Part shown: positions 2,252 through 14,203 of the stretch, in pieces
Layout of the letters: each line of letters begins with the position of its first letter
How positions within the stretch are numbered: position 1 is the stretch's first letter
From: an uncultured virus (IMG/VR IMGVR_UViG_3300028833_006000)
Taxonomy: Duplodnaviria; Heunggongvirae; Uroviricota; Caudoviricetes
Strand: one strand, 5' to 3'
Length of the DNA stretch: 20,000 nucleotides
Virus record (IMG/VR): IMGVR_UViG_3300028833_006000
Translations under genes and position numbers: made by a program
The notes under the pieces: model-generated
Seen by the model: only the letters and a program-made list of their open reading frames with translations
Databases searched by the model: none
What the model was told of the DNA's origin: nothing

Positions 2252-3106
2252 ATGTCCGGCACATTCAATATTGCTACCACAAATCCGCATCTTAATCCAA
2301 ATCATACAAACCATGTCATATCATGGTCCGGCGGTAAAGATTCAACCGCCACTGTCATCCTGTTCCATGAGCATGAAAATGAACTGTTAAAACAGGGTGA
2401 CACAGTTACCATATTATTTGCCGAAGTCATGTTTGACCTGAAAAGAAACATCTCAGGTCACAATCCCCAGATCATCAAGTTCATATATGAAAAAAAACAG
2501 ATTTTTGAATCATGGGGTTACACCGTTCAGATACTCCGCGCAGACACAGATTATCTGGATAATTTCTGGCATAAATTAAGCCGTTCGCCAAAACCAGAAC
2601 GTGTCGGCAAGACATGGGGCTTCGTGCCGGGCGGCATATGTGCAATCAAACGTGACTGCAAATTGAAACCTATCAACCAATGGAATGAACAGCACGCAAG
2701 GGATAATCGCATACAATATATAGGTATTGCCATCGATGAACCCTCTCGTTTAGAAGCTGTTCATAAACAGCCTGATCAAATATCCCTTCTGGAAAAATAT
2801 GGTTATACAGAAAATGATGCCATGAACCTATGCAGGAAATATAACATGGTATCACCCCAATATTCTATGGAAGGCTTGAAGCGAGATGGCTGCTGGTTCT
2901 GTCCAAATGCAAAACTGTGTGAACACAAAGCGATATACAAAGAAATGCCAGCTGTCTGGCAGGAATATGTAGCTTTGGAACAAACGCCTAATCTGGCGTA
3001 TCCTAAATGGAATCCATACACCACGCAGACACTGAAGGACCGTGATGAACTCATCCGAAAAGAAGTTCTGGCAGAACAACAAAATGCTATGGATAAACCA
3101 TCGTAA
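2252..3106 (+). CDS. PAPS/APS reductase-family (PP-loop adenine nucleotide alpha-hydrolase) protein with Fe-S-type Cys motifs
   Basis: SWSGGKDS PP-loop, GICAIKRDCKLKP, YIGIAIDEPSR, C-terminal RDGCWFCP. Confidence 0.85.
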   Translation: MSGTFNIATTNPHLNPNHTNHVISWSGGKDSTATVILFHEHENELLKQGDTVTILFAEVMFDLKRNISGHNPQIIKFIYEKKQIFESWGYTVQILRADTDYLDNFWHKLSRSPKPERVGKTWGFVPGGICAIKRDCKLKPINQWNEQHARDNRIQYIGIAIDEPSRLEAVHKQPDQISLLEKYGYTENDAMNLCRKYNMVSPQYSMEGLKRDGCWFCPNAKLCEHKAIYKEMPAVWQEYVALEQTPNLAYPKWNPYTTQTLKDRDELIRKEVLAEQQNAMDKPS

Positions 3107-3161
3107 CTGAAAGGAGCAATAAAAACATGCGACCTTTATCTATCAAACAAACAGGAAAGGA

Positions 3162-3405
3162 ATAACACGAATCCTGGTAGACCAGGTTGAGCCCCGGAGA
3201 TAACGATGGGGGTTTATAAAATTATTCACTGTTCAGACTCTAACTGTTTTCCGGTGCAGGTGAAAAGACTGAGAACACTGGGCTACAGCTGAATGCTCAA
3301 TAGTGCATCGTGGCCATAAGGACGGAAATCCGGAAACGGCTCCGTTCGTATAAGGGCAATCTCAAAAATATCCGCTCCGCAAGGACTTGTGTAGCGGTGT
3401 GTTAT
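3162..3405 (+). ncRNA. Candidate structured RNA or cis-element of unknown class
   Basis: At least six stems in an intergenic stretch, including GAAA and GCAA tetraloop hairpins, closed by ATAACAC (3162-3168)/GTGTTAT (3399-3405). Confidence 0.55.
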
Positions 3406-4153
3406 GACAAACAGAAAAATCATATGGTATAGCTGTGGAGTATCATCAACAATTGCAGGGCTTCTCGCAGACAGAAATGGTGCTGCAGAATGGATCAGAA
3501 TCTTCCTTCCCAACGAAGACACAGACTCTGAACGCTATTTAGATGACTGTATAAAAAGATTCAACATCAATGTACAGACTATCACAGCCAACAAAAACGT
3601 TGACGAAGTTATCTTGAAGAGGAAATTCATCAACTCTCCTTTTGGTGCTCCCTGCACTTCTGTGCTTAAGAAAGAAGTCAGATTCGCCTGGGAGAAAGAA
3701 AACATCAAAGATGATGATCACATCACATACGTCTGGGGTTTCGATGTCAACGAAGCTCACAGAGCGAAAAGGATGATTGAGAGTTATCCACAGTTTGACC
3801 ATGAGTTTCCTCTCATTGATAACGGACTCACAAAAGCCGATTGCCACGGCATCATCAAAGCACTTGGCGTAAAAAGACCAAGAATGTATGATATGGGCTT
3901 TCCTAACAATAACTGCATTATGTGCGTTAAAGGCGGAATGGGATCTTTCAACCTGTTCAGACAGTACTTCCCCGAACAGTTTGACAAAAGAGCGCAGACT
4001 GAACGCCAGATAGGACATTCATGCCTCAAAAAGTGCTTTCTTGATGAACTCCCGGAAGACGCCGGAAGAAAACCGAAAACAATACCGCAGGATCTTACCG
4101 TGACAGGCGAAGCGGCTTTGCAAATCATAAACAGCAATCTGGAACAAAAATAG
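3404..4153 (+). CDS. Second PAPS-reductase-family protein (mobile-element type, degenerate PP-loop)
   Basis: WYSCGVSS PP-loop variant, APCTSVLKK, VWGFDVNEAHR, FPLID, GFPNNNCIMCVKGG. Confidence 0.8.
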   Translation: MTNRKIIWYSCGVSSTIAGLLADRNGAAEWIRIFLPNEDTDSERYLDDCIKRFNINVQTITANKNVDEVILKRKFINSPFGAPCTSVLKKEVRFAWEKENIKDDDHITYVWGFDVNEAHRAKRMIESYPQFDHEFPLIDNGLTKADCHGIIKALGVKRPRMYDMGFPNNNCIMCVKGGMGSFNLFRQYFPEQFDKRAQTERQIGHSCLKKCFLDELPEDAGRKPKTIPQDLTVTGEAALQIINSNLEQK

Positions 4154-6911: not shown

Positions 6912-7859
6912 TTATGCTTCTAATCCGTTCTGTGGTTCGGTGCTACCTGCCTCAGCGATCACGGGTAATTCTCTATCTGAATAAAGCGCTTCCGTCGGAA
7001 AACCTTCGACATTCTTCAAAGATTCGATAAACTTCTTTTCGCTCGGCTTGAGAGGCACATCACATGCAATCTTGGCAAGTTTATCAACATATTCATTGCC
7101 TTCGATACCTGTGTGGCCTTTTGTGTGGACAAAATCTACAGCCAAGCCTGTCATGCGCACAGACTTGACAAAATCGAGATAGTCCTTCGTGTACGGTGTG
7201 CCGGGCTTATACACTCCGGAAGGAATGTCGCCGATATGTCTCAAGTCATACCCAATTGTAACAGAGTCATATTTACCCTGTCTATATCCCTCAAGAGCAT
7301 AATTCAAAGCGACTTTTGCGCCCAGGATCTCGCTCTCAATATTACGACCGCCATACTCGCATTTAATCTTTCCGGTAAAAATACGAGGATTCTTTTCATC
7401 GGCTACATATACACCATAGCCGGCTTCGTTCGTATTCTGATTATAACTTCCATCGGTAAAGATCCACACATGATTACCCGCATATTCTTTCAAAAGTGGG
7501 TTATCCGCAGACTCTTGCTCGGAAACTTCAGTCTTTGTCGGAACAACGCCTGTCTCGACATATTTTTCGGCTTCAGACTTATACTCAAAGCTCTTATACT
7601 GAGCACCAGGAAAACCGTTTACCTGCTCCTTGCATGTATCCCAGTCAAGATAGACTCCGGGTACACGGCCTTTATGTACGGCATAAAACTTGCCCTTTGC
7701 TTCGGTTGCGCCTAAATATTCCTGTGCTGATGCTTCATCGGGAAAACCCTTGTACTGGGCACCGGCGAAGCCATCGACCTGAGCTTTACAATCATCCCAC
7801 GATGTGTATAATCCCGGTGTGCGCCCTTTCAAGACCGCATAAAACTTATTCTTTGCCAT
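6912..7859 (-). CDS. rnhA: Ribonuclease HI with two N-terminal hybrid-binding (caulimovirus viroplasmin-like) domains
   Basis: Two copies of KFYAV.KGR.PG.Y..WD.CK.QV.GF.GAQYK.F. Catalytic residues in FTDGS, ESEILG, GYDL, KGHTG..GNEYVDKLAK. Start revised to ATG 7859 (SD AGGAGAG). Confidence 0.92.
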   Translation of the reverse strand: MAKNKFYAVLKGRTPGLYTSWDDCKAQVDGFAGAQYKGFPDEASAQEYLGATEAKGKFYAVHKGRVPGVYLDWDTCKEQVNGFPGAQYKSFEYKSEAEKYVETGVVPTKTEVSEQESADNPLLKEYAGNHVWIFTDGSYNQNTNEAGYGVYVADEKNPRIFTGKIKCEYGGRNIESEILGAKVALNYALEGYRQGKYDSVTIGYDLRHIGDIPSGVYKPGTPYTKDYLDFVKSVRMTGLAVDFVHTKGHTGIEGNEYVDKLAKIACDVPLKPSEKKFIESLKNVEGFPTEALYSDRELPVIAEAGSTEPQNGLEA

Positions 7860-7990
7860 AAAACTCTCCTCTATACAAAACAAAGGATCACCGGAGGCTA
7901 TGTCTCGGCAATCCCCTGTTTATCATATCGAATAAAAATTTCTATCAGTGATATTTTATTCAGCTGATCACCACACGGTATTGATCTGTA

Positions 7991-8876: not shown

Positions 8877-8916
8877 GAGATTTTCCAAAAAAAGTTGAAA
8901 AAAATTCAAATCATTA

Positions 8917-8968
8917 TAAAAAATAACACCGCTCATATCTCATTTCATCGAGAAAAGTGGTGTTATTT
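8917..8968 (-). terminator. Rho-independent terminator after the 8972..9667 gene
   Basis: AATAACACCGCT ... AGTGGTGTTATT outer stem with inner TCTC/GAGA; the A run on the left gives a - strand U tract. Confidence 0.6.
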
Positions 8969-8971
8969 GTT

Positions 8972-9667
8972 TTAAGATTCGATCTGTTTTTGTATGTTCT
9001 CTGACCTCAAATCATATATCTTTTGCCTAAAATCCTGCGGCAATACCACACTCACCAGAACCTGTTCCCGGTTAGATATACGTTTATATCGAAGCTCAAA
9101 ATCTGATCCAAATTCCAATCGGTCATCAGTTGGTTTGATATACTCTATCCGTAAGCCATTGATGGCAACTTCAATCGCATCACGCTTCTCATCATAATGT
9201 GTTTCAAATGTTCGCGTGGTCAATGTTTCCGCATTTGCGACCAAAGCCTTATGCTTCCTCGCTTTATATGCTTCCATCGCCCACAATATCAACATGAATA
9301 CGCCATATAATACATAAAATACCACAAGAAATAATATGACTATGACCAGCGCTATAACTGGTATGGCCGGTTCTACAGCTGACATGATCTTTGTCATCGC
9401 AGGCGGCAGATTTGGTGAAGAATATATCAATCCTATGCCTGATAGCATGCACAGGCTTCCCAGAATCAATTTAACCAGTGGAATACATCGTGATACATAT
9501 CCATATGATAAAAATGCTCGCAATATTCGAAATACTGCAAGCATAATCAGGATTGCTCCTATAGATATCAACAATGCACCGCCGAATACAGTTGGCTGTT
9601 GAAACAATGAATATGCATCTCCATGCAATAACTCATCCGAAGGAACAATAGTCTGTGTCAATAACAT
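8972..9667 (-). CDS. Membrane protein (about three TM helices plus a soluble C-terminal domain)
   Basis: Three long hydrophobic segments; 231 aa; start uncertain because the SD is weak. Confidence 0.75.
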   Translation of the reverse strand: MLLTQTIVPSDELLHGDAYSLFQQPTVFGGALLISIGAILIMLAVFRILRAFLSYGYVSRCIPLVKLILGSLCMLSGIGLIYSSPNLPPAMTKIMSAVEPAIPVIALVIVILFLVVFYVLYGVFMLILWAMEAYKARKHKALVANAETLTTRTFETHYDEKRDAIEVAINGLRIEYIKPTDDRLEFGSDFELRYKRISNREQVLVSVVLPQDFRQKIYDLRSENIQKQIES

Positions 9668-11545: not shown

Positions 11546-14203
11546 TTAAGGTTTTGTATAAGAATATTTTCCCCATTCACTCTTCGTGCCGTCAGACATT
11601 ACAGACTGAACACGGAAATAATATGTCCTGCCGGATTTCATACCACTAATGATAACCGAAGTACCGGAAATTGACATCGATGCCATCTTGGAAGAATATG
11701 ATGCGTTGCTATAAATCTCGACATTGTATGACGATGCCGATACAACAGCGTCCCACATCAAACGCATCTTACCATCATTCGCACTCTTCACAACAATATT
11801 CTGTGGAACCTTAGATGTCACAACAGGCTGTGTCGAACCACCTGATCCTGAGGATCCATATTTATACGAGCATGTAGTCCAAGGACTCTGAAGGCCTGTT
11901 GCACTAATGGCTCTCACACGAACATAATATGTTGTGCCGGACTTGATACCATTGATACGAAGAACAGTGCCTGTTACAGATGTCTTTGCGATCGTTGACG
12001 CGAAGTTTGAATCCTTACTGATCTCAATTGCATATGATGATGCATTAGGTACGCTTGACCATGTAGCCCTTGCAATCGTACTGTCAACGCTCTCTACAGA
12101 CACCTTCGCCGGAGCGGATATAGTTGTTGTGCTTGCGCTGTCAGGCAGATTCTCTGAAGAAGAATCTGACACAAACTGGATGCGCAGATAAGTCCAATCA
12201 CTTAAAGCACCATCGGCACCGACTGACTGCAAGCAGACATAATAAGTTCTGTTCGCTTTAATGCCGGTAAGGTTAAATACCGTACCGCTTGTGTTCAAAT
12301 TGCCTGCAACAGTACCGTTCTCAGAATCGATACGCACATAGACATTGGTAGATTTAGCTGCAGAGCCTGCTGTCCATGTAATGCGTGCTGATGAGTCTGA
12401 AGACTTCGTATATGCTGCATTTGTAGGAGCACCAAGCGTTACGGTCTGATCACCATTATCCTCTTCCGTATTTGTCGGATTTATTACAAGCGATGTCCAA
12501 TCCGAATACGTAGTCTTACCGCTCACATATCGATATGCGCGCACATATGCATACAATGTCATATCACGGCTATATCCTGTGATATGGACCTTTGTTGTGT
12601 TGGCATTCATTGCCACAAGCTGATCAGTCTTATTTGCATCCCTATACAGATAAATTGCATATCCGGACGCATTAGACACCGTATTCCATGCCAGATCAAT
12701 AGTGGAATCGGTCACATCAGTTATCTTAAAGCCTGTGGGCGCATCCAATGCAGTTTCACTGGTATCATTACGAATCGTGAAATTGCCATTCACATAAGTA
12801 ACCTGGGCCCACTCTGAATAATAGGTTGTGCCATTGTCTGTACCAACTGTACGAATCTTAATCTTCAGATTTCGCCCGTTCACATTCGTGATCTTGATAT
12901 GATTCAAAACAACAGACATGGAACCGATCAGATTACCGGTATTATAGTTATATGCCTGGATCTCATAATTAGCTGCACCGGGAACATCTGACCAAACAAG
13001 TTTTACACTATCTTCTACTGCATCATACATTCCGTACAGATTATATGGTGCATCAAGGGCGATGGCACCTGCCGGATGTGTACCTGTTGAGTCATAATAT
13101 GTAGGCACATAGTCCGTTGTTGACACGGTAGGAACCCAAGAAGATGACCATGTGGACGCAACTACATGTTCTCTGGATGAAGTATCAAATCTCTTCAAAT
13201 TCGCATTGGATACATTGAAGAAATAATAGTCACCAAGGGAATCATCCCATGTTGCATCTACAGCATAATATTTATTGTCATCAAGCCTTACGACATTCCA
13301 TGCATGGCTATCAGATAACACCGTCATTGTGTCAATACCCATAGCATTGCACATCATCGTCATAACTTCGGAATATCCCGCACATACTGTCTTGTGCTGG
13401 ATCAAAGTGGAATATATGGACTGATCATATGCCCCAGTCACATACTCCGTGTAATCACGCAGCATATTATGTGCGGCACGTTCCATCATATACGTGGTGG
13501 CGCCGGCAGAAGAACATGTTGCGATCCAACTATCTAATTCAGCAAAAAGGGCGTCAGTGGTAGCTGCTCTGGCTGAACCAGAAGCAAAAGCATCATAAAT
13601 GGTAAACCAGATATTCGTAGATGTTGTTAAGAATACCGATGATGCGAAATAATACTGTGGATTGTTATACAGGAACAACTGTGCCACAGCAAAAGCCTGC
13701 TGTTTCGTCAAACCGTACTCTGAGAAATTGATACTGCTTGTCACATAATAAGAGTAGCTTGTTGTGGAATACTTCGTGGCATCCACGTTTGAGCTATTCA
13801 GATATACAGATAAAACACTATCATAAGCGTCATACAACGCTCTTTCGTTTGCTGATAATCTTGATCTTAATGTCGGGGACACATAAGCGGAATAATCATG
13901 CGATCCATAAAAATCACCGCTAATGGCTCCTGCATATGATTCGTTGATAATTGCCTGGTCATCAATACCCTGGCCTGCTGCCACGGAGATACTGACAATT
14001 TCAGGCTCCAACGCTCCTTCCTCCAATGTTGCATCACTTACAATACCTGATGCTTCCTCAAATGAAAATTCACCTGAGATACCTGCGTCGTCATCGCCTG
14101 CCGCGTATACGGGCATTGACCCGAAAGACATCGAACAGGCCATGAGCGCTGCCAAAGCGCCGCTGGACAATCTCGCCCAAAATTTGTGCAGTTTCATAGA
14201 CAT
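11546..14203 (-). CDS. Secreted transglutaminase-like (Cys-His-Asp) protein with about five fibronectin type III domains
   Basis: Signal peptide ending ..PVYA; VCAGYS / SHAWNVV / AVDATWDD triad; repeated AP..W..V..A..Y.I..Y..RVRA..S.W Fn3 units. Confidence 0.88.
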   Translation of the reverse strand: MSMKLHKFWARLSSGALAALMACSMSFGSMPVYAAGDDDAGISGEFSFEEASGIVSDATLEEGALEPEIVSISVAAGQGIDDQAIINESYAGAISGDFYGSHDYSAYVSPTLRSRLSANERALYDAYDSVLSVYLNSSNVDATKYSTTSYSYYVTSSINFSEYGLTKQQAFAVAQLFLYNNPQYYFASSVFLTTSTNIWFTIYDAFASGSARAATTDALFAELDSWIATCSSAGATTYMMERAAHNMLRDYTEYVTGAYDQSIYSTLIQHKTVCAGYSEVMTMMCNAMGIDTMTVLSDSHAWNVVRLDDNKYYAVDATWDDSLGDYYFFNVSNANLKRFDTSSREHVVASTWSSSWVPTVSTTDYVPTYYDSTGTHPAGAIALDAPYNLYGMYDAVEDSVKLVWSDVPGAANYEIQAYNYNTGNLIGSMSVVLNHIKITNVNGRNLKIKIRTVGTDNGTTYYSEWAQVTYVNGNFTIRNDTSETALDAPTGFKITDVTDSTIDLAWNTVSNASGYAIYLYRDANKTDQLVAMNANTTKVHITGYSRDMTLYAYVRAYRYVSGKTTYSDWTSLVINPTNTEEDNGDQTVTLGAPTNAAYTKSSDSSARITWTAGSAAKSTNVYVRIDSENGTVAGNLNTSGTVFNLTGIKANRTYYVCLQSVGADGALSDWTYLRIQFVSDSSSENLPDSASTTTISAPAKVSVESVDSTIARATWSSVPNASSYAIEISKDSNFASTIAKTSVTGTVLRINGIKSGTTYYVRVRAISATGLQSPWTTCSYKYGSSGSGGSTQPVVTSKVPQNIVVKSANDGKMRLMWDAVVSASSYNVEIYSNASYSSKMASMSISGTSVIISGMKSGRTYYFRVQSVMSDGTKSEWGKYSYTKP

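Follow-up and report, generated by a model that had tools for sequence, protein, structure and literature searches.

The second of two PAPS-reductase-like genes in the DNA analysed here, a stretch of 20,000 nt from an uncultured virus (IMG/VR IMGVR_UViG_3300028833_006000; called the window below), raises the question of how its translation is started. The gene (3404-4153, plus strand, 249 aa; phrog_424, E 8e-38; PP-loop and C-terminal CxxC) begins at ATG 3404, which has no local SD, and an in-frame TAG (3392-3394) rules out an upstream start; the first gene (2252-3106, plus strand, 284 aa; phrog_424, E 7e-31) lies upstream in the same gene run. The original prediction placed a multi-stem RNA between a strong distal SD (3154-3161) and the start codon, and proposed that its folding joins the two into a split ribosome-binding site. 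We find that this RNA belongs to a leader family that is real, widespread and apparently undescribed as a whole, and that one part of the arrangement had been overlooked: a short upstream ORF (uORF) that ends at the 5′ arm of the closing stem.

Judging from its gene content and from the closest named homologue, the window may derive from a large extrachromosomal element of a rumen clostridium, and the sequencing runs that contain the whole stretch are sheep gut samples. Elsewhere in the window are two minus-strand genes, for an RNase H with two N-terminal hybrid-binding domains (6912-7883) and for an 885-aa transglutaminase-like/fibronectin-III protein (11546-14203), and a terminator-like inverted repeat of 20 nt (8914-8975) around the start of the end region of the minus-strand gene 8972-9667. 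No local SD is present at the first PAPS-like gene either (2151-2254); an SD-like stretch lies about 80 nt upstream of it, with predicted pairing to its start-codon bases, and this arrangement is not conserved in the two closest homologues of the window, L216 and L232.

In silico, the region 3150-3410 folds at -81.3 kcal/mol (z -2.75), better than most shuffled sequences (1 of 200 was as good), and all of the stem arms originally listed are present where they had been placed. The fold, with all parts on the plus strand, is closed by P1, whose 5′ arm (3162-3169) is predicted from pairing and from comparison of copies to pair with a 3′ arm (3398-3405) that includes the first two bases of the start codon; seven pairs have a pair probability of 0.98 and the eighth 0.55. 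Both the A and the U of AUG 3404 are paired in the predicted fold, the A with the U of the stop codon at 3163-3165, and the distal SD is open there, one chance pair excepted. P2 (3173-3186), recognized by covariation, is a CC-NN-R stem with a loop of the UAGA/UAAA/UGAAA type, followed by a conserved UU; it had been drawn with 6 bp and a 2-nt loop, and the hairpin is indeed present, but its real form has 5 bp and a 4-nt UAGA loop. P3 (3188-3216), recognized by pairing counts against permutations, is a stem of variable sequence whose first pair is U.G or U-A, and is followed by an A-rich linker, J3/4 (3217-3220), which reads UAAA in 66 of the 100 copies described below. P5 (3372-3397), recognized by comparison of copies, has a CC/GG base and abuts P1 via the single U 3398.

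Between J3/4 and P5 lies P4, with a core (3307-3365) of the GUG-GCY ... RGC-AA type that covaries and bears a GAAA-capped stem (3320-3347), and with an extra, lineage-specific sub-domain (3227-3305) of uncertain exact fold that is found in L216 and mostly absent from L232. Compared with L232, about 63 nt in the middle of the window element are an insertion specific to its lineage (257 versus 194 nt). Two of the stems proposed for this region are changed by the comparison. The GGCTAC/GTGGCC stem is probably non-native: bases of its 3′ arm (3313-3315) pair instead with 3355-3357, with covariation in 21/21 homologues of the window's P4 type (13 GCU/AGC, 8 GCC/GGC and 0 mixed), and the GGCTAC side is missing in L232. 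The stem proposed as TGTTC..TTTTC survives in part, with TGTTC/GAAC kept in L216 and TTTTC/GAAAA not kept there. A terminator scan found no plus-strand terminator inside the element, and a promoter scan gave matches at chance level.

The window, searched for the further copies whose presence had been suggested as a check, has only one copy of the element, with no long repeat of it in the 20 kb. A blastn search found 74 bases of it on the megaplasmid pCY360 of Butyrivibrio proteoclasticus, directly 5′ of a gene annotated as PAPS reductase family; the pCY360 copy is only about 160 nt long and shares the SD, the closing stem and the first hairpin with the window. In cultured phages, blastn gave no match for the window element or for two other element types. 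Further copies were collected by pattern scans of viral, genome and metagenome contigs and by a locus scan seeded with a protein alignment, which yielded copies where single-protein locus searches gave none. The first round gave 130 distinct hairpin matches, of which 58 had no P1/start call (mostly chance matches in unrelated taxa, some of them cut short; 4 were restored by hand) and 7 were discarded as chance matches on visual inspection. The second round, with relaxed hairpin patterns, gave at least 90 new matches, of which 41 had no P1/start call (19 of these have a paired P2, and the rule overlooked some real elements among them); another 5 were rejected as chance matches or because the start was mis-called. 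The working set of at least 100 non-redundant copies (56 from the first round and 44 from the second, the latter among the matches listed; L141, which has no start codon, is excluded) comes from phages, prophages and plasmids and forms 43 clusters at 75% similarity. The named hosts of the element-bearing genome matches are mostly Lachnospiraceae, Oscillospiraceae and Clostridium (Clostridia).

A covariance model built from 33 copies recovers held-out copies and the window, and in that search gave nothing significant at the starts of 20 element-less loci. In three samples of about 150 Clostridia genomes, a model search that scored 19 candidates per genome, and so gives no measure of rarity, returned one new match beyond the seeds. 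Rfam 15 has no match near its gathering score at the element, either in the window or at 11, 13 and 18 homologue loci, in keeping with the original description of the RNA as unclassified; resemblances to twister, pistol, SAM and T-box RNAs were considered and had no Rfam support. Rfam is said to include the motifs of Weinberg 2017. No account of the motif was found in the full-text literature searched, a body in which subscription journals are largely absent and the supplements of Weinberg 2017 and Fremin 2021/2023 are represented in part. Fremin et al. 2023 (PMC10690425) list the candidates DNAVirus_7602, _4113 and _2123, which lie within 25 nt of PAPS reductase genes in Clostridia gut phages, are 51-64 nt long and have 2-4 covarying bases; PAPS occurs 0 times in the main text. 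Compared by description, this catalogue may already include a short fragment of the family, perhaps P5, or else the second motif described below. The Fremin 2021 table has 16 mentions of PAPS, among them a 102-nt Clostridiales candidate, HMP2_13584, with 3 instances.

Comparison of the copies gives a five-way junction, and every copy can be divided, in order, into SD, P1 5′ arm, J1/2 (ending in AU in 76/100), P2, U, P3, a UAAA-like linker, P4, P5, U and a P1 3′ arm with the start codon. The covariation among homologues that had been called for is found for P2, P3 and the P4 core. In P2, 97.6% of cells are paired, two-sided changes occur at 4 of the 5 pairs, and pairing exceeds that in all 500 shuffles and in every slid register, over 19 stem-loop types. 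These changes extend to the inner bases, and a reading of P2 as a DNA-level pair of CCWGG sites was dropped because the inner bases covary. In P3, 594 of 651 cells are paired compared to at most 368 in 2000 permutations, a difference somewhat inflated because the register was picked for best pairing. P4 is variable and modular and reaches about 200 nt, and P5 pairs 3-4 are paired in 99/100 copies with several pair types, its CC/GG base being invariant by virtue of the search anchor. For P1, arms pair with their own partner in 12 of 19 cases and with those of other copies in 53 of 342 (0 of 10000 permutations as good; 18/19 versus 116/342 under a looser rule). The P1 statistics are partly circular, in that starts were called partly by best P1 pairing, and the self/cross control lessens this without removing it; we take the result as supportive, non-independent evidence for the closing stem. 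The G.U pairs and tetraloops point to a plus-strand RNA, as had been argued from the window.

The element is dispensable, since 24 of 75 related genes in the protein-seeded set lack it and truncated alleles are still joined to intact-looking genes; in that set it is present at 51/75 loci with sufficient upstream DNA (18/36 after clustering). The truncated alleles are L471 (1334, minus strand), L490 (334, minus) and L442 (1301, plus), deletions without most of P3-P5 or without P4. In L368 and L381, what appears to be left of the P5/P1 3′ strand lies 30 nt before the start; it now contains a local SD together with the stop of the upstream gene, 7 nt from the start, which makes an ordinary coupled junction. 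On one viral contig (L053 and L362), two PAPS-like genes in tandem belong to different subfamilies, and each has its own, distinct copy of the element. An RNA-library contig of low depth (run X1, record 2) that aligns at window 3306-3373 is a different family member.

The distances around the start codon are those expected of a split ribosome-binding site. The distal SD has a median duplex energy of -12 kcal/mol with an assumed 16S tail and is at -6 or better in 100/100 copies, partly by search design. A start codon lies 6-13 nt 3′ of it in only 7/100; the true start is 121-302 nt away and is ATG in 67, GTG in 23 and TTG in 10, a choice of codons like that of true initiation. A local SD is found at the true start in 12/100 copies, compared to 14/18 element-less relatives. 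With P1 closed, the collapsed spacing between SD and start is 3-11 nt in 96/98 copies, while ordinary genes at the same loci have 7-13 nt in 47/55. In the predicted fold, then, an SD that is too far off is returned by structure to a usable spacing. The window is at the short end, with 3 nt; 17/98 copies are alike and 2 are shorter. For the family, the difference of about 3-5 nt from ordinary genes may correspond to about one helix width. P1, however, also pairs 2-3 nt of the start codon in 95/98 copies. The proposal of a split site holds for the strong distal SD and the rarity of local ones, and is incomplete in that the same stem sequesters the start codon.

It is incomplete in a further respect: the arrangement depends on an upstream frame ending at P1, which makes it a translational-coupling device and not a plain split site. 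In the window, this frame is a uORF of 12 codons (3127-3165, plus strand; MRPLSIKQTGKE) with its own SD (3109-3116, plus strand; 10 nt before ATG 3127; duplex -11.9 kcal/mol, assumed 16S tail). Its stop, TAA 3163-3165, lies within the P1 5′ arm and its last codons contain the distal SD, which has no start codon of its own. Different uORFs, of 8 codons, end at the same place in L216 and L232, as does an annotated 70-codon gene in pCY360. In a relative of the window with about 91% identity, the two insertions listed both precede the start of the uORF; the uORF itself and the element are free of insertions.

This position of the stop is general. An upstream ORF ends within 18 nt 3′ of the SD in 87/98 copies (49 long genes and 38 SD-led uORFs), and the remaining 11/98 have a weak-SD uORF ending there, so that no copy is without one. 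Among ordinary SD-led genes, 20/68 have such an upstream end (Fisher P 2e-15 versus 87/98); with one copy per 75% cluster, the count is 38/43 (P 5e-10). The second-round copies, collected after the prediction had been made, replicate this result, with 43/47 true elements compared to 5/23 chance pattern matches (among the matches listed), and shifted windows of the same width contain an ORF end in only 0-9 of 52-57. The stops at P1 in the first-round set are TAA in 43, TAG in 4 and TGA in 3. The distal SD is read in all three frames (56/22/20), which argues that it is kept as nucleotides. The upstream frames are overall unrelated genes of 6 to more than 300 codons, and the uORFs, of 6-39 codons, are unrelated in sequence. 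With P1 closed, the stop lies within -4 to +4 nt of the start in 92/98 copies; the stop-start adjacency of termination-reinitiation is thus present in the folded RNA, but not in the linear sequence. Two other ideas about reading frames were dropped: a uORF starting inside the element, for lack of a consistent start, and an in-frame back-up stop in the P2 loop, where the frames differ and the UAG, UGA or UAA present in 99/100 is mostly forced by the search patterns.

The genes downstream of the element are of a single kind. A PP-loop motif is present in 95/100 and a further 2 match phrog_424, while the locus ends inside the other 3, so that all 97 readable genes of the working set are PAPS-reductase-like, with at least seven divergent subfamilies among them; element copies before other genes (L141 and L402, among the matches listed) are broken ones, followed by a fresh SD. 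The 54 full downstream proteins of the first-round set form seven clusters, and leaders that are 85-91% alike precede proteins with 19-34% identity or without a significant BLAST match; the window and L216 are such a pair, with similar leaders and divergent proteins. The proteins of the window's genes 2252-3106 and 3404-4153 have no significant BLAST similarity to each other. For the second, 712 homologues were found; its AlphaFold model (pLDDT 93) is a PP-loop adenylation fold with weak and even matches to LarE, GMP synthase, MnmA and CysH, and the atlas puts it in largely viral PAPS-reductase clusters. Phage PAPS reductases have been tied to DndC/SspD, DNA sulfur modification and defence evasion, and not to sulfate assimilation. 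The loyalty of the element to one enzyme class across unalignable proteins would suggest a shared ligand. From sequence comparison, the element appears to be a riboswitch candidate, since its structure is conserved, covaries and is placed 5′ of a single functional class of genes.

Other leaders were seen at these loci. A second, unrelated-looking motif has a strong SD and, after about 40 nt, a run of pyrimidines complementary to it, then AAA and a start codon; this motif could be a switch between SD-paired and SD-free folds. It is found at L320:1473-1525, L348:1485-1537, L387:101-153, L329:1272-1325 and L369:878-933, with no Rfam match at these five loci, and in L402 downstream of the broken element; it sits immediately before PAPS-like genes, before the main element's uORF (in tandem, in L329 and L369) or before a methyltransferase-like gene (L402). 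A structured-looking segment 5′ of the first PAPS-like gene is common to L216:118-300 and L232:171-350 and is a possible third motif; in L216, a uORF of 6 codons comes after it. Another conserved, foldable leader occurs at L338:1055-1180 and L344:1370-1500, where the PAPS-like genes have a normal local SD.

The structure, the SD, the position of the stop and the link to one kind of gene are established as far as comparison of copies can establish them, and the reading that we would on balance back is long-range termination-reinitiation through a folded, probably ligand-gated domain of 120-300 nt. In the predicted resting state, closed P1 would hide 2-3 bases of the start codon, and no local SD would be at hand. 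A ribosome on the upstream gene or uORF would reach the stop at the P1 5′ arm and open P1, as expected from known ribosome footprints. After termination it would be retained by the strong SD beside the stop; P1, stacked on P5, would re-form with P2-P5 looped out, and the start would then be at SD distance and about 4 nt or less from the stop. The initiator tRNA would take the frayed terminal pairs of P1, and the same ribosome would re-initiate. The conserved junction core would most likely make this step depend on a ligand shared by the whole enzyme family. Within this model, a reaction-linked small molecule is our tentative choice of ligand; the enzyme itself is possible but doubtful, and a version with no ligand seems somewhat unlikely.

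We favour re-initiation because the element resembles an ordinary coupled junction whose halves are held together by a folded domain, and because of what is reported for simpler systems: re-initiation requires stop and start to lie very close together and fails past about 20-38 nt of linear distance (PMC10666635), it is helped by SDs located within the upstream gene (PMC6728339), and in T4 genes 25 and 38 a hairpin between SD and AUG is tolerated (PMC3014915). Against it stand the pairing of the start codon itself by P1, a feature that would fit an OFF state better than it fits the T4 split sites, and the very short collapsed spacing in the window's subtype; in the literature searched, we also found no precedent for a ribosome that accommodates a domain of 120-300 nt between the SD and the P site. 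The partly circular P1 statistics and the dispensability of the element count against it too, as does the outcome of blocking 3150-3176 in silico, after which the start region is not freed and re-pairs elsewhere. A variant that we regard as rather unlikely is an IRES-like switch, in which the junction, plausibly tRNA-like and lodged in the E-site/platform space, would stay bound to the post-termination ribosome and would, only when ligand-bound, move the mRNA in the channel from the stop to a start up to 300 nt away. The ligand would in this case belong to the phage PAPS-reductase-like enzymes, DndC/SspD-related and possibly anti-defence.

If P1 were simply inhibitory, the terminating ribosome would need only to open it, and a second ribosome could start de novo without a normal SD; the distal SD would then serve to prolong the dwell of the terminating ribosome. 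The cover of 2-3 nt of the start in 95/98 copies and a stop that is always where a ribosome would melt P1 are what this account predicts, and an upstream-translation-dependent mechanism (UTNI) has been described (PMC6728339). We nevertheless consider it unlikely. When the 5′ region is blocked in silico, P5 is still paired 4-7 nt before the start; the lack of a local SD in 88/100 copies is unfavourable in a group with high SD use (PMC6728339); and the match of collapsed spacing and stop-start offset to ordinary junctions is left unexplained. It is less probable again that the element acts as a stand-alone RNA, whether enzyme substrate, guide, cofactor or tRNA-like decoy, with SD, stop and P1 only permitting translation of the gene. 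The strict tie to an enzyme superfamily with relatives that act on tRNA or nucleotides (weak fold matches to MnmA, TtuA and LarE) is suggestive, as are a P4 that varies so freely in size and five arms that, with P5 abutting P1, may recall a cloverleaf with a long variable arm. The element, however, has no CCA end, ARAGORN reports 0 tRNA or tmRNA genes in the window, copies are always at a start codon and never free-standing among the matches listed, and the same genes use ordinary ribosome-binding sites at 24/75 loci.

The original prediction had also considered an intron-like, ribozyme or mobile RNA, and a self-splicing or self-cleaving RNA that joins SD and start, or a non-autonomous mobile one, would account for a compact conserved core, for a domain that alone separates the SD from the start and for near-identical leaders on unrelated gene subfamilies. 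This now appears quite improbable. Rfam gives no intron or ribozyme model match, and, because stops occur as late as P2, a cut that spares them would leave at least 9-19 nt between SD and start. Contigs of two RNA libraries from one sheep gut sample span the whole stretch with no joint, although this is weak evidence, as contigs lose rare forms, show neither level nor strand and may reflect DNA carry-over. As for mobility, the window has a single copy, a mobile RNA would not be expected to stay within one gene family, and the empty-site alleles that had been sought did not appear, none of the 19 element-less junctions being a precise one. Programmed bypass as in T4 gene 60, which would fuse the upstream peptide to the enzyme, shares with our element a hairpin and a non-coding gap straight after a stop (PMC3014915), but a take-off codon in frame occurs within 10 codons of the start in only 3/98 copies, the start position alternates only among ATG, GTG and TTG, and the upstream frames have nothing in common; we give it almost no credence. 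By the tests run, the element is outside every Rfam family, intron, known ribozyme and bypass system.

If re-initiation by a long detour is correct, about 100 natural junction variants seemingly break the reported rule that bacterial re-initiation is local, and the concept of a split ribosome-binding site would grow from hairpins of 20-30 nt to entire RNA domains. The mutable parts (uORF, stop, SD and P1) make the ribosome's post-termination behaviour directly testable, and the L471, L490 and L442 alleles are ready-made natural mutants. Since the RNA accompanies PAPS-reductase-like genes whose subfamilies have diverged too far for alignment, the identity of a ligand would indicate the role of these widespread phage enzymes. 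If the IRES-like reading is true, the element would represent a new class of riboswitch, one whose target is re-initiation instead of transcription or access to the SD, and it would disclose the chemistry behind one of the most common 'auxiliary metabolic' genes of phages.

Among known systems, the best Rfam score belongs to the RT-2 motif (RF03077), which resembles the element in having AAAGGAG and, after it, a short hairpin whose loop is GUAA-like; it reaches 20.5 bits on L232 for the SD and hairpin only, compared to a gathering score of 40, and its alignment leaves 105 model positions, the central domain, unmatched. The defining feature of RT-2 is the presence of reverse transcriptase genes close by (PMC5737381). 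A crude motif test of 1-2 kb flanks of 57 copies gave two YxDD-like matches and no gene of reverse-transcriptase size. Upstream translation and long-range pairing together control a downstream start in plasmid rep genes of the repY/repZ type and in the r-protein operons infC-rpmI and rplJL; compared by description, these systems differ from our element in having a local SD and antisense RNA or r-protein repressors.

Termination-reinitiation provides a closer parallel, with an SD in the last codons of the upstream ORF and, once P1 is closed, a stop and start a few nt apart, but in our element the linear distance is more than 110 nt and closeness exists only in the fold. The split sites of T4 genes 25 and 38 are alike in that an SD and AUG too distant in sequence are joined by the intervening RNA structure; there, a single hairpin spans 22-27 nt and the spacing is simply shortened (PMC3014915), whereas here a five-way junction spans 121-302 nt, the start codon is itself paired in the closing stem, and that stem is where the upstream ORF has to end. 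With translational riboswitches, the element has in common a conserved multi-way junction at the start codon of one functional gene class with divergent proteins. Unlike in those, its SD lies 5′ of the domain and is unsequestered, and an upstream stop is obligatory.
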